Assembly: GCA_031423775.1 (NCBI GenBank)
Contig: JANPGF010000057.1
Span: 1 to 61,891, forward strand
DNA from: Candidatus Kaiserbacteria bacterium
GTDB lineage: Bacteria > Patescibacteriota > Minisyncoccia > Phycocordibacterales > UBA918
Direction of reading: 5' to 3'
DNA length: 61,891 nt
Position numbers and translations under genes: made by a program. A model generated the notes under the pieces. It was given only the letters and a program-made list of their open reading frames with translations. It did not search any database and had not been told where the DNA came from. Position 1 is the first letter of the stretch, and each line of letters opens with the position of its first letter. Positions 4,241 through 56,608 of this stretch are shown in pieces.

Positions 4241-4345
4241 AAAAACAAAGTCGCTGCGGGAATTGTAGTGGAGGTATCAGGTTTACAACTGCGTCGATAA
4301 ATTGCGCTAGGACAGGGCGCAATTTACGACATAAATTCGCAATAT
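4241..4345 (+). repeat. Intergenic hairpin repeat unit, copy a (subtype 1)
   Basis: ..AAAGTCGCTGCGGG-N-GGTATCAGGTTTACAACTGCGTCGA-[TAAATTGCGC 4298-4307 / loop TAGGACAGG / GCGCAATTTA 4317-4326]-CGACATAAATTCG. It is about 94% identical to the copy at 55505-55570. Confidence 0.8.
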
Positions 4346-4410
4346 GCCCTTTGGGCATTTGCTCATTTAAGTTTTGTGACAGCGCTAACTTGCTGTATAC
4401 TAGTGGCTAC

Positions 4411-4653
4411 ATGAGCAAGGGCACGTTTGTTTTTCTGTTAGGAATGCTATTGGTTGTAGTGCCTTATTTGGGCATTCCTTCTAGCTATAAGCAGTATATC
4501 TACGTTGGGTTTGGTATTATTTTAATATTGGTTGGGTACGCAATCCGTCGTTCCCGTTATTTGAGTGATATTGATCGAGGAAACGGGGAGCGAGGGGGAG
4601 AAACATTTGTAGAGACAACCCAAAATCTATTTGGTGAAGTAAAAGCTGAGTAA
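4411..4653 (+). CDS. Small membrane protein (two predicted TM helices)
   Basis: Internal ATG of listed ORF 4351-4653. MSKGTFVFLLGMLLVVVPYLGIP...YIYVGFGIILILVGYAI gives two hydrophobic spans followed by a charged tail. Confidence 0.5.
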   Translation: MSKGTFVFLLGMLLVVVPYLGIPSSYKQYIYVGFGIILILVGYAIRRSRYLSDIDRGNGERGGETFVETTQNLFGEVKAE

Positions 4654-4723
4654 GGACCGGGCGGTTTGACAGATAGGAGCAACCGGTATTAAATATCTCA
4701 CAGGATAGTTGGGGGAGGGAACC

Positions 4724-4975
4724 ATGTCTGAATCAGTAGAAACCTGGGGAGCTTTGATTGGCTCCGCAAATCCTGAAGGTCATGATTATCTGGCTTCGTT
4801 TAACCAGATGACCGAGAACTTCGAGCGTGAGCTCGGCAGTCTCAGTGACGATTCGTTTGCGGTACTTTACGAACGGTTGTCTGACAATCATTCGGTTCAT
4901 GACTGGAGATTGCATTCGGCGCAGAAAGAACATGAGCGTCGTCAGAAGGTGCGTACTGTACCCGGACCTGTCTGA
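4724..4975 (+). CDS. Hypothetical small acidic protein (83 aa)
   Basis: ATG lies 4 nt after GGGGGAGGGA. Listed ORF 4709-4975. No family recognised. Confidence 0.45.
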   Translation: MSESVETWGALIGSANPEGHDYLASFNQMTENFERELGSLSDDSFAVLYERLSDNHSVHDWRLHSAQKEHERRQKVRTVPGPV

Positions 4976-5013
4976 ACCGTGTTTCCATATTCCCGTTATG
5001 AAGTAAAGATTAC

Positions 5014-5039
5014 GGTCGCGTGAAAACGCGACTTTTTTA
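5014..5039 (+). terminator. Rho-independent terminator
   Basis: GGTCGCG / CGCGAC stem with TGAAAA loop followed by T6. Confidence 0.75.
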
Positions 5040-5067
5040 TATACCGAATAAGCTCGAAGAGAATCAG

Positions 5068-5210
5068 AAATTTTATGTCGTGAGTTCCTTAAAAACTAGG
5101 TCTACCACAAGAGTATTCCCGTTTTTATAGTCGCAAGCTCCTTAAAAACTAGGTCTACCACAAGAGTATTTCCGTTTTTATAGTCGTTCCACTCCTTAAA
5201 AACTAGGTCA
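5068..5210 (+). repeat. 53-54-bp tandem repeat, about 2.6 copies
   Basis: The unit TCCTTAAAAACTAGGTCTACCACAAGAGTATT(T/C)CCGTTTTTATAGTCG.. starts at 5086, 5139 and 5193. The same repeat occurs at 55361-55468. Confidence 0.85.
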
Positions 5211-5340
5211 AATTCGAAATAGTCACGACGGGAGTTGATGTGCAAAAGTAACAGGTTTACAACTGCGCGGATACTTTGCCCTAGGGCAAGGGGCAAAGTA
5301 CTCGCATAAATTCGAAATAGTCACTACGTTCGTTTTCTCA
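5210..5340 (+). repeat. Intergenic hairpin repeat unit, copy b (subtype 2), flanked by AAATTCGAAATAGTCAC direct repeats
   Basis: CAGGTTTACAACTGCGCGGA-[TACTTTGCCC 5272-5281 / TAGGGCAAG / GGGCAAAGTA 5291-5300]. AAATTCGAAATAGTCAC occurs at 5211-5227 and 5308-5324. The tail ACGTTCGTTTTCTCATT is shared with the copy upstream of obg. Confidence 0.8.
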
Positions 5341-5392
5341 TTCATGTATATAAGAGGGTAAAATCAATCCTCCACTACGGTACTATATATGT

Positions 5393-6958
5393 ATGGATAA
5401 CGAAGAGCAGAATGCTCGGCGCTTTTATGCGGTGAGCTATGACGAAGAAGAACCAACTGTCACCCTGGGTGCGTTTATTCCGGCACGCCCTAAAAAACGT
5501 GATGCGACATTTTCGTATACACCAGCCAGTGTGGCTGGGGAAATCAATGGCGTACGCAGTCCGTACATCCTCTCTGTGAAAGTCATTACGATGATGTTTG
5601 CTCTCCTGCTCTGTCTCTTTGCCGGTCGAGCGACCGCACCCTATATGAGGTCTGTTGGGGCGACTCTCGGTGCTCAGTTAGCGGCGAGTAAGACTGCCAT
5701 TGTGCCGGTGCCAGTCATTGTACAAAACCCGTACACAGCAAAGCAGGAGCCGTTAAATTACGGGGTGCAGGTGGCTCTCTCTGAGCCGAATTTTTATATT
5801 GAAACGCGGGATGCCTTTATTGAAGGTGAAAAAACGTTTATTGAAGCAGACCTCACGACAATGCAGCTTCGTTATTTTGATAAAGGAGTCATGCGTGAGC
5901 AGGTACCAATTGTTTCAAAAGGACAGAAAGGGTCCTGGTGGGAGACCCCGGCTGGTCTGTATGAAGTAAAGGATAAAAAAGAAAAGCAATTTTCACCATT
6001 CGGCCAAGTAAATACGCCGTACGCGATTACTTTTCAGGGTAACTTCTCGATTCATGGCTGGCCGCAATTCCCAAATGGGGAACCGGTACCTGCAGACTAT
6101 CCAAGTGGTTGTATTCGTTTAAGTGATGATGATGCTAAAAAGATATACGATCTGGCCATGCCGCACACACCGGTATTGGTACATGAAGCGCCTATCGTAG
6201 CGGACAGCTTTGTCTATGAGCCAAAAATTCCTGAACTGGCAACCCCGCACTATTTGATTGCTGATGTTGAAAGTAGTACGGTGCTTGCGAGTAGCGATTT
6301 GTCTGAAGCTGTCCCGATTGCCTCACTTACAAAACTGATGACGGCACTTGTCGCAGCTGAATATTTGAATCTCGATGAGACCATCGAAGTCACTCAGCCA
6401 ACGTTTGTACAGTCTCTGATTCCGCGTTTAGGTGATCGAGACAAGGTTTCTATGTATAGCTTGTTACAGCTCTTGCTCGTAGAATCGTCAAACGAAGCCG
6501 CTGAAGTGATTGCAAACCAGGTGGGACAAGAGAAATTTGTAGGCTATATGAACGAAAAAGCGGCATCGCTCGGACTCGTGAATACCCATTTTGCCGATCC
6601 GTCAGGTCTGAGCGCCTCAAACACCTCGAGTGTCCGTGACCTACTCAGTCTCACTCAGTATATCTATAATAATCGAAAATTTATTCTCGATTTGACTGCA
6701 AACCAGGATTTACCTACTGCCTACGTGAGTGGTCAATTTGGTGAACTCAGTAACTTTAACAAAGTGGCTGGTCTCGATAACTTCCTCGGTGGTAAAGTAG
6801 GGGAAACGACTGCGGCGGGACAGACCTCAATCTCCCTCCATAAACTCCATGTAAAAGGAGCAGATCGAGTGATTGCAATTATCTTGCTCGATTCAAAGAG
6901 TCGTGGTGCGGATGTAAAAGAACTTCTGCAGTATGCACAAGACCGATTTGGTAATTAA
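5393..6958 (+). CDS. Membrane-anchored L,D-transpeptidase (YkuD) fused to D-alanyl-D-alanine carboxypeptidase (peptidase S11)
   Basis: N-terminal TM (VITMMFALLLCLFAG). YkuD motif SIHGW...YPSGCIRLS. The C-terminal half carries S11 motifs ASLTK (SxxK), SSNEAA (SxN) and GGKVGETT (KTG-like, with T replaced by V). Confidence 0.8.
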   Translation: MDNEEQNARRFYAVSYDEEEPTVTLGAFIPARPKKRDATFSYTPASVAGEINGVRSPYILSVKVITMMFALLLCLFAGRATAPYMRSVGATLGAQLAASKTAIVPVPVIVQNPYTAKQEPLNYGVQVALSEPNFYIETRDAFIEGEKTFIEADLTTMQLRYFDKGVMREQVPIVSKGQKGSWWETPAGLYEVKDKKEKQFSPFGQVNTPYAITFQGNFSIHGWPQFPNGEPVPADYPSGCIRLSDDDAKKIYDLAMPHTPVLVHEAPIVADSFVYEPKIPELATPHYLIADVESSTVLASSDLSEAVPIASLTKLMTALVAAEYLNLDETIEVTQPTFVQSLIPRLGDRDKVSMYSLLQLLLVESSNEAAEVIANQVGQEKFVGYMNEKAASLGLVNTHFADPSGLSASNTSSVRDLLSLTQYIYNNRKFILDLTANQDLPTAYVSGQFGELSNFNKVAGLDNFLGGKVGETTAAGQTSISLHKLHVKGADRVIAIILLDSKSRGADVKELLQYAQDRFGN

Positions 6959-6982: not shown

Positions 6983-9295
6983 ATGACTTCGTTTGATCCT
7001 GAAAAAATTACCTTCTTTGCCAAGACTGATGCTCGTGGTAAGCATGTGCAGTTTGGTATTAAGGCCAAAGACCGTCAGCGCCACATGTATGTGGTCGGCA
7101 AGACTGGGATGGGTAAATCTACCCTGCTTGAAAACATGGCGGTGCAGGATATTCAGAATGGGGAGGGGATGGCGTTTATTGACCCGCACGGTTCTGCTGC
7201 TGAGACCTTACTCGAATATGTTCCTGAACACCGGGTAAACGACGTTGTTTATTTCGCGCCGTTTGACCTCGATAATCCGATTTCTTTTAACGTGATGGAA
7301 GACGTTGGTCAGGATAAGCGACACCTCGTGGTGTCGGGACTCATGTCTACCTTTAAGAAAATTTGGGTAGACGCTTGGAGTGCGCGTATGGAGTACATCC
7401 TAACCAATGCCCTATTGGTACTGATTGAGTATCCAGACACAACACTCCTCTCGGTCAACCGTATTTTTAATGATAAAGCCTTTCGCTTGAAGGTGGTTGA
7501 TTACTGTACTGATGCAGCGGTAAAGTCATTTTGGGTTGATGAATTTGCTAACTACACAGAACGATTTGCTGCCGAGGCACTACCAGCGATTCAAAATAAA
7601 ATTGGTCAGTTTACGGGGAATCCACTGATCCGTAATATCATCGGACAACCACACTCCAGTTTCGATTTTCGTGAAATGATGGACAAGAAAAAGATTGTGA
7701 TCATGAACCTCTCAAAAGGTCTCATTGGTGAAACGAATGCTAATTTGCTTGGGTCAATGCTCACTACCCGTATATATCTCGCTGCGATGAGTCGGGCTAA
7801 TTTGCCTGTGGCCGAAATGAAAAAGATGCCAAACTTTTATTTCTACGTGGACGAATTCCAATCGTTTGCGAATGCCACATTTGCCAATATTTTGTCTGAG
7901 GCGCGAAAATACCACCTCAACCTCATTATTGCGCACCAGTATATCGAACAAATGGAAGAAGAAGTGCGAGATGCGGTGTTCGGAAACGTTGGTACGACTA
8001 TCGCTTTTCGGGTTGGTCCATTTGATGCAGAGACGCTTGAAACCGTATTTACGCCTCGTTTCCTCGCGGCAGATTTGGTGAATCTTGGATTTGCACAGAT
8101 TTACCTCACTCTTATGATCGATGGCATTGGGTCTCAACCGTTCTCAGCGGTGACGTTACCTCCGATTGCACTGCCGGCTGTATCTTGTCGTAATATGGTA
8201 ATTGCTGCCAGCCGTAAAAATTATACCCATCCCCGCGAAGAGGTGGAGAAGATTGTGCTGGAATTACACACACCAGTCAAAGAGGAGAAAAAGCCGCCAA
8301 TGGTAAAGCCTGCGGTAAAGGTAAATGGGGTAGTGTCTGTCGTTGACGAAAAAAAAACGACTGGTTGGAACTCCCCGAAACCTTCGACGACATCGAGCCG
8401 ACCAGCCATTCCTAGACCAGTTCCTGCTGCAACCCCAACAACAACTGCGACAACGACAGTTACTGCTACAGCAGTTGCTACTGAATCAGTCGTAACAACG
8501 GTAGAGTCAGTTCCTACAACAACACCTGCAATTGCTCCAACTCCAACTCCAACTCCAACTCCAACTCCAACTCCAACTCCAACTCCAACTCCAACTCCAA
8601 CTCCAACTCCAACTCCAACTAGTGTTTCTTCCCCAGTAGTTTCGCCTGTCTCTCGAGAAGATCGGGGGCAATCAAATTCGACCACTCGTCGTCCGGTAAC
8701 ACCGATTATGGCAGTAACGGTTAATGGTCGAAATACTCCCCGGACACAAAATTCTCGGCCGCCTGGTCCTTCGGCAAATCGGCCAGCACCTAAAGCAACG
8801 GCTTCTGTCGACGATCTCAAAAGTATTTTAGCCCGCATTGCAAAAACCCCCGCTGAATCCGAGAAGCCTAAATCACCACTAGCTAATAAAACTGGCGCTG
8901 CTCCATCTGCGGCTGCGGTGTCTCCATTACAGGCCGCCCTGGCTTCTCTTGAAAAAGTTGATCAGAGTGCACCACGTGAATTACCGCCTAGACCTGTGTC
9001 GGCTGCATCCCTGCCGCCACTTTCTCATGTTGACCGAATCACGGCAGAATACATGGCAGCAGAAACGGAAGCTGCCTTTGCCGCCCTTGAAACCAAACAT
9101 ACACAGAGTGTTGCAGCAGCCCCCGTACCTGAGTCGTCACCAATCGTGTCTCCCTTCACTCCTCAATCAGTGACCGCTAAGACTGAAAAAAAAGTAACAA
9201 CTGCGCATCATAAACCGAAGTCAGATGAGGTGGATCCGAAAAAGGTAGCTAAATTACTGAAACATGCTGGCAATGAACGCTCACCATTCCGATAG
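6983..9295 (+). CDS. VirD4/TraD/HerA-like P-loop ATPase with long Pro/Thr/Ala-rich disordered C-terminal tail
   Basis: Walker A VVGKTGMGKST, Walker B FYFYVDEFQSF, and RKYHLNLIIAHQ typical of coupling-protein/DUF87-type ATPases. From about aa 440 the sequence is low complexity and includes (PT)14. Confidence 0.65.
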   Translation: MTSFDPEKITFFAKTDARGKHVQFGIKAKDRQRHMYVVGKTGMGKSTLLENMAVQDIQNGEGMAFIDPHGSAAETLLEYVPEHRVNDVVYFAPFDLDNPISFNVMEDVGQDKRHLVVSGLMSTFKKIWVDAWSARMEYILTNALLVLIEYPDTTLLSVNRIFNDKAFRLKVVDYCTDAAVKSFWVDEFANYTERFAAEALPAIQNKIGQFTGNPLIRNIIGQPHSSFDFREMMDKKKIVIMNLSKGLIGETNANLLGSMLTTRIYLAAMSRANLPVAEMKKMPNFYFYVDEFQSFANATFANILSEARKYHLNLIIAHQYIEQMEEEVRDAVFGNVGTTIAFRVGPFDAETLETVFTPRFLAADLVNLGFAQIYLTLMIDGIGSQPFSAVTLPPIALPAVSCRNMVIAASRKNYTHPREEVEKIVLELHTPVKEEKKPPMVKPAVKVNGVVSVVDEKKTTGWNSPKPSTTSSRPAIPRPVPAATPTTTATTTVTATAVATESVVTTVESVPTTTPAIAPTPTPTPTPTPTPTPTPTPTPTPTPTPTSVSSPVVSPVSREDRGQSNSTTRRPVTPIMAVTVNGRNTPRTQNSRPPGPSANRPAPKATASVDDLKSILARIAKTPAESEKPKSPLANKTGAAPSAAAVSPLQAALASLEKVDQSAPRELPPRPVSAASLPPLSHVDRITAEYMAAETEAAFAALETKHTQSVAAAPVPESSPIVSPFTPQSVTAKTEKKVTTAHHKPKSDEVDPKKVAKLLKHAGNERSPFR
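8537..8620 (+). repeat. Perfect hexanucleotide repeat (CCAACT)x14 inside the ATPase CDS
   Basis: Read directly: 14 uninterrupted CCAACT units encoding (Pro-Thr)14. Confidence 0.95.
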
Positions 9296-9494: not shown

Positions 9495-9553
9495 AATTCT
9501 ATTCTAAATAGTAAGGGGTACCTTATACTGTGGGATTTGATACTATAGAGGGT

Positions 9554-34426: not shown

Positions 34427-36163
34427 TTAGGATTCAAAAACGTCAGAATCTCGGAGGCGGAAGAGCCCTTCGTCAATGCGCCTCTGGTCGAGGTGGTGAC
34501 CGATAAAGCCAACTGAACGGGGAATAACAAATAAGGCGTTCATAAATTCCGTGTCCAAGAGCTCACTGATTTCTGCCGAGGTACATTTTTCGTATTCAAC
34601 GAGGTAATCGAGAAAAACCGCAGCAACCGCCCCATCGATATTAAGAATTAAATTAGATTTTTTCTTGGTGGTTAGTTCTGCAATTGACTGCGCAAAGGTG
34701 CTGTACGTTTTTGCAGTGAGGTCCAGGTCAGCTTGAGCCAAAAGGGCTGCAACTCGAGCGTCAGGTCGGTAGATATTGTATTTGAGATGCCCTATACCCT
34801 GTATGTGCTCACGCTTTTTGCTTGCATTTGCCACCACGTCAGCGGGCGTTAGTTTTGCTTTTACACTCTCATACCATAGTGTGGCCGCATTATTCATAGC
34901 CCCACCAAATCGATCACCAATCGTGAGGATGCCAGTTGCGAGTGAGGATACCATATCTCGGCCGGCCCGGGTGGTGATGATGGTATTTGCAGCCCCTGAA
35001 ACATGAGGTCCATGATCAATTAACTCAACAAAAATAGTGTCGGTTACTCGTACCAGTTCAGGCGACACTGTGCGACCGAGGAGTCGAGCGAGGATATGTT
35101 CAGTAAAGCTTCCTGTAGTTGTGCCGGTCACCTGTTTTGGTGCCGTGATGAGGGTGTGATGAGTATTGGCTGGTCGACCAGTCCAAATACGAGCAGTAGC
35201 GGATGTCGTGATTTTCTTTGGGAGGTGGGCGAGCTGCTCGTTAAAATCGGCAAAGGTGTCGCTGACGATAACCCCAGCGGCCCGGAGGGCGACTGATTTG
35301 GCGTTGGCTGTTTCATCAGGATTTTTTGCGAGGGCTTTGGCGTGACCAAATTGAATAACCTGATCACCTGATTCGTAGCGTCCTGCAATGTAGGCGTAGA
35401 TGGGTTTGGTAATTTCACCGTTTTGTACAGCTGCCGCTAAATCGTATTCATCAGTCCCGCCAAGTTCACCAAAGTATATGATCTGTTCGGTTTGAGGATC
35501 GGCTTCGGCTGCACGAATCCAGTCGAGTGGCGAAGTGATAGGGAAGCGATCTCCGCCATACGCGATGGCAAAACTAATGCCCGCTCCGTGCGCGGTTACC
35601 TGGTACATGATTTCATTTACCATTCCGCCTGAACTACAAATAATTGCAGTGTGGCCTAGTGTGGTGCCGAGCTCTGTCACCCGAGCGCCAGCGATACCGC
35701 CGATTGCTCCTAATTTCAAGAGCCCGGGCACGCACAGTCCAACACCAGACGGCCCTGCAATAAATTTCTGGTTAGATGTGCCATCGCCGTAAGAGCTAAT
35801 CAGTGCGAGCGCATCACGTTCTGCAACATTCTCAGCAAAAATATGGGCACCCAGTGCCTGCGGAAAATGGATAAAGAAGTCAGAGACCATACGGTACGCA
35901 CCGCTTGCAGAGGTAATATTGAGAAGGAAATCAGGCGTGAGACCGAGGAGAACCGCTTCCTCCATACTAGGAATCACCGGAACTAATATTTCTGCGTTAC
36001 CCCAAAATAGCTTTTGGCTTTTTTTGCCAACAGAGATAATGGCAAGAACGCTTGGCGTAACGCGGCCACTTGCATAATCAAAATCGAGGATTGATTGAAC
36101 AATACGTTCATGGTTACCTGCTATCAGAATGGTAGGTGTTTTAGTCCGGAGATTTTTTATCAT
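34427..36163 (-). CDS. aclA: ATP-citrate lyase large subunit (CoA-binding/phosphohistidine domain + citrate-synthase-like domain)
   Basis: [10 protein letters not shown] aligns with ACLY VQFGHAGACA (phosphohistidine loop). [45 protein letters not shown] aligns with ACLY [43 protein letters not shown]. Confidence 0.85.
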   Translation of the reverse strand: [578 protein letters not shown]

Positions 36164-37317
36164 AACAAATTACGTTTAACGATTTCGCCAATAGCAGAGA
36201 GTGGTAGGTCAGGGCCATGTACTTCAGCGGGTATGTTGTGCGTAGCGAAAAATTCACGGAGGAAGTTGAGGGCGACATCTTGGTTCAAACCACCACGTCG
36301 GACGCAGACGGTGATGCCGGCTGTTTGGAGCTCTGGAATTACTTCACTGCATGCGTCCATGATACCTAGGAAGGTTTCTTTGATATCAGTAAAATTTGAT
36401 ACACCGCCAGCAATCAAAATAACTTTTTTTGAAGCGGAAGATGCTAACAGGACACCGAGAAGTGTTCTGACATACGCATAGGTTTCATCGCGCGTTGGGG
36501 CGCCACTATACTCACTGTAGTTGATAATCTCGGATTGAAGTCCAGCCGCAACCAGTGCATCAATAGTTACCAAACTGGCCCCGCCGCCTGAAAGGAGAGT
36601 GAGGACTGCACCATTTGGATTTAATACTTTGAGGTTGAGCGACGCCTGTGACCGTTCGTTCTGTTCAGCCACATCTTGTTCCGGTGGTGTGAGTGTCGAG
36701 GTTATAATGTGATCGGTACACCAGTCAGGTAGCAGGTTTGCTTTAGCCGAGTCACATTCAGCGGCCATGTCGAGCGCTATAAAAGTACCATTCTGTACGA
36801 TAAACGGATTAATTTCCAAAAATGAAATATGAAAACGAGCCATGGTTGCGAGTACTGTCATGAGGTCGACGCCAGGCATCGCCGCGAGAATGTCCGAACT
36901 AGGACTGACACTGTGGGGGACAAGATATGTTTCAACACTCGCTGCATGTTCTTCGATAGCGACGCCGCCTGATTTTGAATGGAGGATAGTTGCACCCGTA
37001 CGTCCAATATCAATACTGAGATACTGTTCTTCAGAATCAGTGTGCGGCTGCATAACTTCGACTATGCAGCGGTTATGTCCCAAGGCAAAAAATGCCTGCG
37101 CGGCAGGTGTGATTTCTGCTTTTGTTAAATTAACTTTGACCAGTCCGGCTAAACCGCGTTTCTTGATACCGGTATCAATTTTGAGAACAAAACGCGCAGT
37201 GTCAGGCAGTGACTCGAGGGCAACCGCAAGGGTGTCTGGGGTGAGGGTGGTGCCTGTATAAACGTCACCAAGCATCAGCTTTTTTGCTGCATATTCAGTT
37301 ATTCGGATTCGTGCCAT
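36160..37317 (-). CDS. aclB: ATP-citrate lyase small subunit (ATP-grasp / CoA-ligase beta-like)
   Basis: LEINPFIV, ASLNLKVLNPNGAVLTLLSGGGASLV, NYSEYSGAP, ILIAGGVSNFTDIKETFLGI and VCVRRGGLN align closely with the N-terminal half of ACLY and with Chlorobium AclB. There is a 4-nt overlap with aclA. Confidence 0.85.
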   Translation of the reverse strand: MARIRITEYAAKKLMLGDVYTGTTLTPDTLAVALESLPDTARFVLKIDTGIKKRGLAGLVKVNLTKAEITPAAQAFFALGHNRCIVEVMQPHTDSEEQYLSIDIGRTGATILHSKSGGVAIEEHAASVETYLVPHSVSPSSDILAAMPGVDLMTVLATMARFHISFLEINPFIVQNGTFIALDMAAECDSAKANLLPDWCTDHIITSTLTPPEQDVAEQNERSQASLNLKVLNPNGAVLTLLSGGGASLVTIDALVAAGLQSEIINYSEYSGAPTRDETYAYVRTLLGVLLASSASKKVILIAGGVSNFTDIKETFLGIMDACSEVIPELQTAGITVCVRRGGLNQDVALNFLREFFATHNIPAEVHGPDLPLSAIGEIVKRNLL

Positions 37318-51458: not shown

Positions 51459-51617
51459 ATGGCAGTAGCAAAAAAGGCCGTTAAGAAAGTAGCGAAGAAG
51501 GCCGCAAAGAAAGTTGTAAAGAAAGTAGCAAAGAAGGCTGTAAAGAAAGTAGCAAAGAAGGCAACAAAGAAAGTTGTAAAGAAGGCCGTAAAAAAGGCTC
51601 CAGCTCGCAAGAAGTAA
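51459..51617 (+). CDS. Histone-H1/Hc1-like Lys/Ala-rich DNA-binding protein, 52 aa (below ORF-track cutoff)
   Basis: Own translation: MAVAKKAVKKVAKKAAKKVVKKVAKKAVKKVAKKATKKVVKKAVKKAPARKK*. A promoter-like site lies upstream and a terminator downstream. No obvious SD. Confidence 0.65.
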   Translation: MAVAKKAVKKVAKKAAKKVVKKVAKKAVKKVAKKATKKVVKKAVKKAPARKK

Positions 51618-55190: not shown

Positions 55191-55221
55191 GCACCATTGT
55201 CAGCAGACGATGGTGTTTTTT
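55191..55221 (+). terminator. Rho-independent terminator
   Basis: CACCAT / ATGGTG stem followed by T6. Confidence 0.55.
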
Positions 55222-55271
55222 GTGTGTAGGAGAGTAACTCCGCAAGTTCTTTGATTTTAAACATAATTTGT

Positions 55272-55360
55272 AATAGTCGCTATAGCGAGTTGATAAACGG
55301 AGTATCAGGTTTACAACTGCGCGGATAAACTGCCCTAGGACAAGGGGCAGTTTACTTACA
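55272..55360 (+). repeat. Intergenic hairpin repeat unit, copy c (subtype 2)
   Basis: AATAGTCGCTA..GTATCAGGTTTACAACTGCGCGGA-[TAAACTGCCC 55326-55335 / TAGGACAAG / GGGCAGTTTA 55345-55354]. Confidence 0.8.
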
Positions 55361-55468
55361 TCACCACCAGAGTATTTCCGTTTTTATAGTCGCAGGCTCC
55401 TTAAAAACTAGGTCTACCACCAGGGCATTTCCTTTTTTATAGTCGTTCCACTCCTTAAAAACTAGGTC
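55361..55468 (+). repeat. 54-bp tandem repeat, about 2 copies (same family as 5068-5210)
   Basis: TCCTTAAAAACTAGGTC starts at 55398 and 55452, preceded by a partial unit ..CCAGAGTATTTCCGTTTTTATAGTCG. Confidence 0.85.
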
Positions 55469-55598
55469 AAATTCGAAATAGTCGCTACGGGAAATGGTGC
55501 TTGGGTATCAGATTTACAACTGCGTCGATAAATTGCGCTAGGCCAGGGCTCAATTTACGACATAAATTCGAAATAGTCGCTACGCTCGTTTTCTCATT
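55468..55598 (+). repeat. Intergenic hairpin repeat unit, copy d (subtype 1), flanked by AAATTCGAAATAGTCGCTACG direct repeats
   Basis: [TAAATTGCGC 55529-55538 / TAGGCCAGG / GCTCAATTTA 55548-55557, one mismatch]. The flanking 21-mers lie at 55469-55489 and 55565-55585. Confidence 0.8.
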
Positions 55599-55639
55599 TA
55601 GTTTTACTTTAAAAGGGTTCTGTGGTATTACATTAGGTC

Positions 55640-56608
55640 ATGTTTGTTGATCAAATACTTATAACAGCCAAAGCCGGCAATGGTGGAGAGGGGGTGGAGC
55701 GATGGCGTCATGAAAAATTCGTACCAAATGCTGGTCCTTCGGGCGGTAATGGTGGGAATGGTGGTGATATATACGTACAAGCAGTACGTGATTTAGGGTT
55801 GCTCGCAAAATACACCGGCAGTCCAGAATTCGAAGCTGAACCAGGTGAACCTGGGCATAATGACAGTAAACACGGGAAAGGTGGGGTTGACCTAACAATT
55901 TTTGTACCCGTTGGATCGGTGGTTACTGATACAGAACGCGGACGCACCTACGAGTTTTTTACTGAAGGTGTCCGCGAGCGGGTGTTAAAGGGTGGTCAAG
56001 GAGGGTTTGGAAACGAGCACTTCAAGTCTTCAACGAACCGTACCCCAAAGGAAACAACCAAAGGTAAACCTGGTGAGGTAAGTACTCTCAAGATTGAACT
56101 CACTCTCGTGGTTGATGTAGGGCTCATTGGTATGCCCAACGCGGGTAAATCGACTCTCCTCAATGCCTTTACCAATGCACGTAGTCGAGTTGGAGCATAT
56201 CCGTTTACGACCCTCCAGCCGCATCTCGGCGACCTCTTCGGTTTTGTGATAGCTGACATCCCTGGACTCATAGAAGGGGCAGCCGAAGGGAAGGGGCTCG
56301 GACATACGTTCCTCCGTCATGTCACTCGAACTAAAATGTTGCTCCATTTGGTCTCACTTGAGCATGAAGACCCAATAGCTGCGTATTACACCATTCAGAA
56401 TGAACTATCTTCATATCATAAGAGTCTAGTAGAGAAAGAGGAGTGGGTAATTTTTACTAAAAAAGACGTTGCAAATCAAGCTCAATTAGACACAGTGCAA
56501 GACTTTATTGACAAGACCAAGAAACGTGTCTTTGTTATATCTGCAGAAAGTGGAGAAAACATGAAAATGCTTCAAGATTCCCTTGTGCAGTACTTACGAA
56601 ACGCGTAA
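55640..56608 (+). CDS. obg: GTPase Obg/CgtA (short form without C-terminal extension)
   Basis: MFVDQILITAKAGNGGEG...GPSGGNGGNGGDIY glycine-rich Obg fold. G1 is GMPNAGKST and G3 is DIPGLIEGA. Confidence 0.95.
   Translation: MFVDQILITAKAGNGGEGVERWRHEKFVPNAGPSGGNGGNGGDIYVQAVRDLGLLAKYTGSPEFEAEPGEPGHNDSKHGKGGVDLTIFVPVGSVVTDTERGRTYEFFTEGVRERVLKGGQGGFGNEHFKSSTNRTPKETTKGKPGEVSTLKIELTLVVDVGLIGMPNAGKSTLLNAFTNARSRVGAYPFTTLQPHLGDLFGFVIADIPGLIEGAAEGKGLGHTFLRHVTRTKMLLHLVSLEHEDPIAAYYTIQNELSSYHKSLVEKEEWVIFTKKDVANQAQLDTVQDFIDKTKKRVFVISAESGENMKMLQDSLVQYLRNA

Follow-up and report, generated by a model that had tools for sequence, protein, structure and literature searches.

Repetitive extragenic palindromic sequences (REPs) are described as single palindromes of 20–40 nt that are species-specific and occur in many dispersed intergenic copies per genome, and bacterial interspersed mosaic elements (BIMEs) as modular assemblies in which the number and order of the modules vary. 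RNase R and PNPase are known to target mRNAs that bear REPs (PMC12320835). BOX elements of Streptococcus pneumoniae (boxA-boxB(n)-boxC) are likewise modular, and palindrome-associated transposable elements (PATEs), derived from IS200/IS605, insert by a fixed tetra- or pentanucleotide. In Patescibacteria, which have very small genomes, little DNA to spare and, to our knowledge, few known regulators, we know of almost nothing described on non-coding elements. Here we describe a repeated two-hairpin unit in a contig of Candidatus Kaiserbacteria bacterium (assembly GCA_031423775.1, JANPGF010000057.1, positions 1 to 61,891; this whole stretch of 61,891 nt is called the window). Its four copies, a to d, are one lineage's version of a widespread structured element that is absent from the libraries searched, and the sequence-only reading in which the repeat was noticed had understated the finding.

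The unit is about 85 nt long and consists of two hairpins joined by the A/U-rich linker AUAAAUUC. The first hairpin, P1, has a 4-bp lower stem, a bulge of 1–2 nt, a 10-bp upper stem of variable but complementary sequence, and a GG-rich loop (GG in 98 and GGA in 62 of 145 units). The second has a nearly invariant core, GCAA-UAGUC-(P2)-UCGUUUGC, in which P2 is a mini-hairpin of variable length, and is followed by UCAUU. In the window, the core block ATCAGRTTTACAACTGCG is found four times, always on the + strand, at 4276, 5250 (with one mismatch), 55304 and 55507; 0.07 copies are expected by chance, and none of 100 dinucleotide shuffles reached four. A repeat finder puts the four copies in one family, and the P1 hairpin was folded by RNAfold in all of them.

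The sequence agrees with the earlier placement of the copies at 4241–4345, 5210–5340, 55272–55360 and 55468–55598, and the five compensated stem changes relative to copy a and the one mismatch in copy d that had been claimed were all correct when the arms were read again. The upper-stem arms are TAAATTGCGC/GCGCAATTTA in copy a, TACTTTGCCC/GGGCAAAGTA in copy b, TAAACTGCCC/GGGCAGTTTA in copy c and TAAATTGCGC/GCTCAATTTA in copy d. The double changes lie at pairs 3, 4 and 9 in copy b and at pairs 5 and 9 in copy c, thus at four distinct pair positions. Copy d has a C.U mismatch at pair 8 that looks private to it, because at position 55550, where copy d has T, all other copies in the source metagenomes have G and so an intact pair. 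The unit as first outlined was a repeated hairpin but too short: according to the covariance model, it continues 3′ into the second hairpin. When the whole window was scanned unfiltered with this model, full units a, b and d (Table 1) scored 62–76 bits and were accompanied by the P1-only copy c and nothing else notable; copy c has the first hairpin alone (partial model match at 55323–55355), its second hairpin being split off by two inserted modules. The bordering direct repeats (ATAGTCRC..CG), the 3′ block CATAAATTCG and the tail TTTTCTCATT/TTGCTCATT, listed before as separate features, are present, but all of them are parts of one second hairpin. Three copies do lie near start codons as had been said, but the distances from the true 3′ end (CTCATT) are 43, 50 and 41 nt, to the genes at 4411, 5393 and 55640, respectively. 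Even within the window one pair of the second hairpin covaries, C-G in copy a and A-U in copies b and d.

Relatives of the unit were found in large numbers. In a first step, the 3′ block matched two other Paceibacteria in GTDB. The family pattern, AAATTCGMAATRGTC-N8-18-TTKYTCATT, was taken only from the second hairpin and 3′ part and left the upstream sequence unconstrained; it yielded 114 metagenome loci and 72 loci in GTDB species-representative genomes, the latter titled Paceibacteria/Paceibacterota, Kaiserbacteria, Nomurabacteria, Parcubacteria or "Patescibacteria group", with a few off-label records (two Clostridia metagenome-assembled genomes (MAGs), one Hyphomicrobiales and one Bifidobacterium). 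Up to about 6–7 copies were found per incomplete MAG by the strict pattern, and more with the covariance model. A stable hairpin (dG ≤ −8) lies just upstream in 145 of 154 distinct units, though the pattern asked for none. Furthermore, a mismatch search of the collected loci (numbered with L) revealed that in L123 obg is preceded by a homologous unit whose stem is compensated in a new way. The 5′ block of the window copies behaves differently: a 22-nt pattern on it had no match in GTDB representative genomes, and a 31-nt one that began in the block's final 10 nt and extended into P1 had none in JGI metagenomes, so that the block, judged from these searches, is private to this lineage. Because all four window copies carry it, a larger piece would have been copied within the lineage. 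The 119 matches of a shorter, 16-nt pattern on the 5′ block fell in unrelated phyla and were disregarded as chance.

The larger alignments bore out the claim that selection acts on structure and not on sequence, and supplied both the further copies and the covariation that had been sought. For 73 units, RNAalifold gave the upper stem of P1 together with a helix pairing GCAA/GAAA (of AAATTCG(C/A)AAT) with UUGC/UUUC (of GUUU(G/U)CUCAUU). In the MAFFT alignment, 87% of the cells are paired versus 71% after shuffling, and double-change cells number 246 versus 77. The covariance model was built from this alignment with a structure that includes the 4-bp lower stem of P1. When 90 distinct further units were fitted to it, 92% of the cells were paired versus 68% in shuffled controls, with 370 versus 102 double-change cells, figures that by construction are biased towards the model's own structure. 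Compensated changes occur in 19 of the 21 pairs of this alignment, and pairing falls to 48–58% when the partner is shifted by one column. One second-hairpin pair, both positions of which the search pattern left free, is C-G in 128, A-U in 27, C-U in one and A-G in none of 156 distinct units. P2 ranges from 7 to 18 nt and stays a hairpin, as in GC-UAC-GC, GCGC-UAC-GCGC, GACCC-UUC-GGGUC and, in copy a, UGCCC-UUU-GGGCA. From copy to copy the P1 arms change at as many as all ten positions of the upper stem and remain complementary. The fold of a single strand is what selection keeps.

The family could not be assigned to any known one at the start, and this still holds. Rfam 15 gave no match in the window at gathering score, on the units of two repeat regions even at E ≤ 10, or in 12 further loci at E ≤ 1. 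Collections of viral contigs, phages and plasmids had no match to the element, and no candidate was found when copies were sought as spurious open reading frames (ORFs) in a protein collection. In the literature, our search found no paper with the core sequence, and on repeat elements or RNA motifs in these bacteria it found only the report of TIGR-Tas (PMC12045711). The family is large and apparently not described before.

There are variants within it. In the two GC-rich MAGs labelled Clostridia, several copies (L329:3800-3930, L339, L357, L358, L371 and L372) have the second hairpin AAATTCGCAATAGTCGTGCGGAATCGCACTCCTTTGCTCATT and sit in a different mosaic of GC-rich hairpins without the usual P1; they reflect either mis-binning or a core module that crosses phyla. 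In a subfamily (L230, L251, L256, L274, L289, L318, L338, L352, L379 and others), P1 is replaced by a longer three-part hairpin, CAGCTCGCTRCAGCC-ATTCTCCCTTGGAGGTCGAAT-..GCTAAGCGCCTG, whose apical part GGTCGAAT is reminiscent of a tRNA T arm.

The window repeats form three mosaic regions that fill three of the largest intergenic gaps. Region B (5077–5342) has the order T-T-T-S-V-H-S-E: it opens with three T modules of 53 nt, continues through a partial core and a semi-variable, G/T-rich stretch to the 5′ block, and closes with the hairpin and the 3′ part. Region CD (55270–55598) has the order S′-V-H-T-T-S-V-H-S-E, in which P1 is split from its 3′ part by two T modules and a complete unit follows. 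A 130-nt piece, T-T-S-V (core-variable), is duplicated 50 kb apart with 93% identity by blastn, and the repeat finder gives 91% identity for 5104–5240 and 55363–55499. The T modules fold weakly (GUUUUU-AUAGUCGC..-AAAAAC) and have a likeness to a second-hairpin variant with another closing stem; the covariance model matches them only weakly, to model positions 60–77 at 5180–5197. T-like modules are found at the same junction, CAT/AAATTCG, in L281 (inverted), L313, L321, L335, L367 and L278, and inside P1 in L325.

The copies are also numerous and unstable in place. Depth was read from Logan contigs of four metagenomes (freshwater and sediment) aligned to the window: in the two that contain this genome, the unique flanks have a depth of 3–8 and the modules of 50–250, a 25–40-fold excess, and in a run without this genome's unique DNA the module depth is hundreds to nearly 2000, with 1300–1900 for the 3′ core. 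Metagenome contigs stop where modules begin or end, and the order in which they join modules differs from that in the window. The spacer between the holin-family gene and obg contains no unit in L121 and L124, one in L123, and two and a half units plus two T modules in the window; the Obg proteins of the nearest species representatives are 80–87% identical to that of the window. Upstream of obg in L122 (9380–9800) there are five copies of a different repeat, a perfect 20-bp palindrome CACTATCATATATGATAGTG and variants, and therefore this spacer is a repeat hot spot in several lineages. Several units occur per 8-kb locus, some of them in tandem, as in L229, L238, L314, L327 and L330. The orthologous loci upstream of pilB in L254 and L296 have the same flanks and wholly different, fully complementary P1 stems, which looks like replacement by copying and not stepwise change. 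The family is thus copied within the genome, builds mosaics, differs between relatives at one locus and sits at gene borders. Self-comparison of the repeat regions gave no reverse-strand match between unit ends, that is, no terminal inverted repeats, and no target duplication was seen in the flanks. Near the units no protein family is recurrent; the largest cluster (11 of 167 loci) is an ordinary gene.

Gene context was counted for 116 classifiable units with crude gene calls. Both neighbouring genes are on the other strand in 72 of them, and the gene adjoining the CTCATT end in 87; the stop codon of this adjoining gene lies −5 to +3 nt from CTCATT in 58 of the 87. The C-termini of the abutting genes look native, and by eye, which is the only basis of the names, their sequences resemble those of S7 (..AFAHFAW-stop), NusG, GroES, L20, SMC, GreA, RNase III and a tRNA synthetase. 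The same pairs of gene and element recur: the S7-like C-terminus in L214, L245, L324 and L389, an acidic protein (..DSFDD.DE.-stop) in four loci and a NusG-like one in six. The three bases after CTCATT are constrained to T/C, A/C/T and A/T (G in 0, 1 and 10 of 156), and therefore the reverse-strand junction usually reads stop-AUG, stop-A-AUG or AUGA. A same-strand gene starts 1–61 nt downstream in 29 of the 116 units. A reverse-strand terminator-like site precedes the element in 24 of 144 units, and no promoter common to the correctly extracted regions upstream of P1 was seen by eye.

In the window, a scan for terminators and promoters flagged the ordinary terminators upstream; the second hairpins of copies b and d were not flagged, and in copy a only a small overlapping hairpin at 4352–4365 was. 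The hexamers TATACT, TACTAT and TATTAC (4396–4413, 5381–5395 and 55617–55642), −10-like by eye, lie 6–9 nt before the ATG of the three downstream genes, with no Shine-Dalgarno sequence in between; by their sequence, this suggests that these mRNAs are leaderless or nearly so. The obg hexamer (TATTAC/TATTAA) is present also in relatives, including ones without the element. Since the terminators lie before the repeats and the hexamers after them, the window repeats would stand between an upstream terminator and a downstream promoter. Searches found no RNA runs that matched the window with its units or the L225 locus, and no stranded RNA data. Three further candidates were rejected: a small ORF from the G/T-rich stretch and a mini-ORF (MSKRA-stop) on the reverse strand, because frames and lengths vary and length changes in P2 are not multiples of three; and the tail as a fixed −35 box, since its spacing to the −10-like hexamers differs among copies.

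As to the strand that acts, the evidence is mixed and leans to the reverse complement, most likely the strand that folds. Read on that strand, the P2 loops are GNA triloops or GNRA tetraloops closed by C-G; among 151 hairpins in 159 units, GTA occurs 66 times, GAA 14, GCAA 9, GTAA 10 and GGAA 6 times, counts that are partly non-independent because many units have the commonest form. About half of the four-base loops are GNRA, versus 3% by chance. The same loops on the + strand (UAC, UUC, UUGC, UUAC, UUCC) fit no known stable class. In the P1 upper stem of the model-based alignment, read on the + strand, A.C oppositions outnumber G.U ones by 40 to 14; a crude count in which the loop-closing U.G is included favours the + strand (G.U 50 versus A.C 30). 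The orientation of the element has no link to local GC skew (40 versus 49).

The reading that we rank first, and to which we give somewhat less than an even chance, is that of a REP/BIME-like structured repeat that folds mainly on the reverse strand as a 3′-end module. A REP- or MITE-like element was among three options raised when the repeat was noticed, and it is the best of them in that copies are multiple, mosaic, polymorphic and 25–40-fold in excess by depth; the terminal inverted repeats of a miniature inverted-repeat transposable element (MITE) do not go with it. At about three in four loci the folding strand would be the sense strand of the genes next to it, with the element beginning at or overlapping the upstream stop codon, and in the transcript the two hairpins would open the 3′ untranslated region. 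Such a module might serve as a barrier to 3′ exonucleases, as a weak or bidirectional terminator or as an insulator, and, with only about 5 nt between it and the stop codon, its second hairpin would be unfolded while a ribosome terminates. The window copies, which have the minority orientation, are probably recent passengers and not leaders of the L,D-transpeptidase, obg or small membrane-protein genes.

Several observations weigh against this reading. About a quarter of the units lie just upstream of a same-strand gene, and at the pilB loci the element would lie in a 5′ leader, judging from an extended −10-like motif, TGTTATAAT (by eye), some 40 nt before P1. Terminator-like sites around the units follow no single pattern, and the evidence for transcription is one contig of an unstranded sludge metatranscriptome that runs from the end of the S7-like gene through the element and may be of DNA origin. 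Over all pairs, read on the + strand, A.C (59) and G.U (43) are about even, and the minimum free energy is slightly better on the + strand (46 versus 24 units, p = 0.02). A scan of 40 window proteins revealed no transposase, integrase or reverse transcriptase, and no such family recurs within 3 kb of 167 units; without terminal inverted repeats or a fixed flank, the case for mobility consists of copy number, mosaics and polymorphism. Moreover, many lineages have almost the same 35-nt core, which also occurs in a GC-rich MAG labelled Clostridia. Such conservation is unusual for a selfish repeat and suggests a host or trans-acting partner.

That conservation also speaks for a host-selected cis-acting RNA device on the reverse complement, starting at the stop codon and coupling translation termination to mRNA fate, an explanation that we regard as rather unlikely. 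Its possible effects include ribosome stalling or release, decay, processing between cistrons and reinitiation, and its many copies would reflect many user genes. Besides the near-invariant core, it is favoured by the many ordinary genes whose stop codons lie within 5 nt of the element, by the same gene-element pairs in several genomes (S7-like, acidic and NusG-like), by the GNRA/GNA loops on the reverse strand and by the stop-AUG or AUGA very often read there at the junction. Reportedly, an Escherichia coli REP within about 15 nt of a stop codon lowers translation via ribosome stalling (Liang, Rudd and Deutscher, 2015). A device of this kind fits less well with the window copies, which have no reverse-strand gene and are stacked in mosaics or tandem, with copy number and P1 sequences that differ between relatives at the same locus, with the quarter of the units oriented opposite to their neighbours, and with the 24 of 144 that have a reverse-strand terminator-like site before them. 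In a wider form, a conserved device of reduced genomes might be either such a post-stop RNA module, in which folding controlled by the ribosome leads to decay, processing or reinitiation, or the substrate of a mobility pathway without a neighbouring transposase; this too we hold to be a minor prospect. In either form, the irregular hairpin GCAA-UAGUC-(GNA/GNRA mini-hairpin)-UCGUUUGC would be the putative binding site of a conserved factor. A less probable explanation, compatible with the reading that we prefer, takes the hairpins as single-stranded DNA signals: a single-strand transposase or nickase encoded at some other place in the genome (of the IS200/IS605 type, a REP-associated tyrosine transposase (RAYT) or another HUH enzyme) would mobilise a non-autonomous element whose ends or recognition sites they are, with any RNA effects as by-products. 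The lack of terminal inverted repeats, fixed flank or obvious target duplication suits it, as do the hairpins kept by covariation, the copies spread within a genome along with their lineage-specific flank, the T-like modules at one fixed junction in both orientations in several genomes, and the restriction of the bases after CTCATT to Y-H-W with almost no G. The commonest P2 on the reverse strand, GCGTAGC or GCGAAGC, has the form GCGNAGC, that of an exceptionally stable DNA mini-hairpin. However, no gene for such an enzyme was seen within 3 kb of the 167 units or in the window, the flank is not a fixed tetranucleotide, orientation does not follow GC skew, and the two hairpins are unlike each other while IS200/IS605 ends are alike.

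The two other options raised at the outset fared worse. A + strand small RNA or 5′ leader, in which the GG(A) loop of P1 would bind a protein or the ribosome and the second hairpin with UCAUUU would act as terminator, we consider improbable. It would account for the 29 units with a same-strand gene 1–61 nt downstream, the extended −10-like motif seen by eye about 40 nt upstream of P1 at six pilB loci, the GG (98) and GGA (62) loops and the slightly better folding on the + strand. It is at odds with the absence of an evident promoter at a fixed distance by eye, the antisense position of most units to both neighbours (the adjoining gene being on the other strand in 87 of 116), the P2 loop signature on the reverse complement and the second hairpins of copies b and d, which the terminator scan passed over; in the window, moreover, the −10-like hexamers lie downstream of the element, and that of obg is kept in relatives without it. 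A palindromic double-stranded DNA site for a dimeric protein is very improbable. P1 does have two-fold symmetry in every copy, but its arms differ freely at up to all ten upper-stem positions and stay complementary, P2 is a hairpin at any length from 7 to 18 nt, and the loop is asymmetric.

Table 1. Parts of the repeat regions and nearby terminator-like sites in the window
Feature	Positions	Strand	Evidence
Partial ATAGTC-type core motif and semi-variable G/T-rich stretch AAAGTCGCTGCGGGAATTGTAGTGGAG before copy a	4241..4272	+	sequence; same arrangement before b, c, d
Lineage-specific 5′ block GGTATCAGGTTTACAACTGCG, copy a; last G opens P1 lower stem	4273..4293	+	
Copy a P1: lower stem GUCG/CGAC, bulged A, upper stem 4298-4307/4317-4326, loop UAGGACAGG	4293..4330	+	sequence, RNAfold, covariance model
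Copy a linker AUAAAUUC, second hairpin GCAA (4339-4342)/UUGC (4359-4362) around P2 UGCCC-UUU-GGGCA, tail UCAUU	4331..4367	+	
Copy a, full unit (61.9 bits, E 3e-10)	4283-4367	+	covariance model
Terminator-like site of upstream gene, before region B: GGTCGCGT-GAAA-ACGCGACT and T run	5014..5043 (scan: 5014-5033)	+	terminator scan
53-nt T modules: partial 5077-5103, full 5104-5156 and 5157-5209	5077..5209	+	repeat finder
Partial second-hairpin 5′ half AAATTCGAAATAGTCACGACG and semi-variable stretch before copy b	5210..5247	+	
Lineage-specific 5′ block GTAACAGGTTTACAACTGCG, copy b	5248..5267	+	
Copy b P1: lower stem GCGG/UCGC with 1x1 internal loop, upper stem 5272-5281/5291-5300, loop UAGGGCAAG	5267..5305	+	
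Copy b linker, second hairpin GAAA (5314-5317)/UUUC (5334-5337), P2 AC-UAC-GU, tail UCAUU	5306..5342	+	full unit 5256-5342, 72.5 bits
Terminator-like site of upstream holin-family gene, before region CD	55191..55226 (scan: 55191-55216)	+	terminator scan
Before copy c: partial ATAGTC core and semi-variable stretch 55270-55302, 5′ block 55303-55321	55270..55322	+	
Copy c, P1 only: upper stem 55326-55335/55345-55354, loop UAGGACAAG, end ..CAUC	55323..55362	+	
Two 53-nt T modules inserted between P1 (..CAT) and AAATTCG	55363..55468	+	repeat finder, blastn
Partial second-hairpin 5′ half AAATTCGAAATAGTCGCTACG and semi-variable stretch before copy d	55469..55503	+	
Lineage-specific 5′ block GGTATCAGATTTACAACTGCG, copy d	55504..55524	+	
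Copy d P1: lower stem GUCG/CGAC, bulged A, upper stem 55529-55538/55548-55557, C.U mismatch (T55550), loop UAGGCCAGG	55524..55561	+	
Copy d linker, second hairpin GAAA (55570-55573)/UUUC (55590-55593), P2 GC-UAC-GC, tail UCAUU	55562..55598	+	full unit 55514-55598, 76.2 bits, E 4e-13

Other genes of the window were noted in passing. Between regions A and B there are two small ORFs, 4411–4653 (80 aa) and 4709–4975 (88 aa), neither of which reaches the Pfam threshold; the former, taken for a small membrane protein in the sequence-only reading, has a sub-threshold match to DUF7269. A single ORF at 5393–6958 encodes an L,D-transpeptidase (YkuD) fused to a D-alanyl-D-alanine carboxypeptidase (Peptidase_S11) domain; elsewhere the fusion was found only on a 1.7-kb Logan contig, and no record was found for the window Obg protein. 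The 770-aa protein encoded at 6983–9295 has weak matches to VirD4/TraG-type coupling proteins, and a (TCCAAC)n hexamer run at 8512–8625 would be a Pro/Thr-rich linker if it is in frame with this ORF. A long cluster at 9530–34369 contains genes for glycosyltransferases, heptose-pathway-like proteins (SIS, PfkB, HAD), NeuB, FkbM methyltransferases and an acyltransferase, and the G+C content falls to 0.37–0.43 at 20–28 kb, inside it. Two adjacent genes on the − strand at 34427–37317 match Citrate_bind, ATP-grasp, CoA-ligase and the citrate synthase C-terminal domain; by these matches they are putative parts of an ATP-citrate lyase/citryl-CoA system, which is unexpected in so reduced a genome. At 51464–51607, a 12-nt periodic repeat of at least 8 units would encode on the + strand a Lys/Ala-rich (V/A)AKK sequence of histone-H1-like composition.

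An element at well over 100 independent loci, with covariation in 19 of 21 pairs and many copies per genome, usually right at the stop codon, matters in either case. If it is a selfish repeat, streamlined genomes still carry and tolerate proliferating elements, and these would explain assembly breaks there. A functional element would be a candidate for general control, coupled to 3′ ends or termination, in a major bacterial lineage, and its conserved core would offer a way in for pull-downs and reporter assays. For the annotation of such elements and the flagging of assembly breakpoints, the covariance model is of practical use.

The unit was compared with known systems by their described build and behaviour. 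Several of these can be set aside on their defining features. MITEs have terminal inverted repeats and a target-site duplication, neither of which was seen. For integron attC sites, the RYYYAAC...GTTRRRY boxes are absent, the units have no cassettes, and no integrase was found. TIGR-Tas arrays consist of units of about 36 nt with two 9-nt spacers beside a Nop-domain gene (PMC12045711); unit size and build differ here, and no Nop-domain gene was found among the window proteins scanned. CRISPR-like arrays were rejected for the 53-nt repeats on the same kind of ground, and for a ribozyme no Rfam family matched and no hammerhead core was seen by eye. Not in this group are the small RNAs that bind CsrA/RsmA, which have several GGA-loop hairpins and go with a CsrA gene in the genome: a unit here has a single loop to compare, and of 145 such loops 62 contain GGA and 98 GG. 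Intrinsic bidirectional terminators likewise have hairpins directly after genes, and A/U-rich sequence flanks the second hairpin on both sides (AAAUUC...UCAUUU). However, the unit differs from them in its 35-nt conserved sequence, irregular stem, poor U run and second large hairpin, and ordinary terminators are present in the same spacers.

The likeness to PATEs lies in subterminal hairpins, the lack of inverted terminal repeats and of evident target duplication, and precise borders by a short constrained flank. They differ in that the two hairpins here are unlike, that orientation in these data follows genes and not GC skew, that no tnpA/tnpB partner was found, and that the three bases after CTCATT are constrained without being one word. 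With BOX, the unit shares a variable count of an internal module of about 45–53 nt and intergenic positions near gene starts; both are predicted to fold stably, code for nothing and have no known mobilising enzyme beside their copies. The unit belongs to another phylum, is presumably unrelated in sequence, and has as its invariant part an irregular hairpin with covariation support. Abutment on stop codons is, as far as we know, not a described feature of BOX. With REPs and BIMEs the common ground is wider: short, non-coding, multi-copy sequences with compensated hairpins, intergenic, often just after stop codons and within transcripts, forming mosaics and tandem runs with other motifs and without inverted terminal repeats. 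Four dispersed intergenic copies lie in 62 kb, and the build is modular with variable number and order of modules, as in BIMEs and BOX. In contrast to a REP, the unit measures about 85 nt with two unlike hairpins, presumably without likeness in sequence, and many lineages share its near-invariant core. Inverted doublets are not usual, a RAYT gene was found neither within 3 kb of the 167 units nor among the 40 window proteins, and GTAG, the head of REP/REPIN, is confined to the P2 loop as read on the reverse strand. None of these systems fits as the family; by this comparison, REP/BIME and BOX would be the closest analogues, and non-autonomous elements derived from IS200/IS605 the closest model for its spread.

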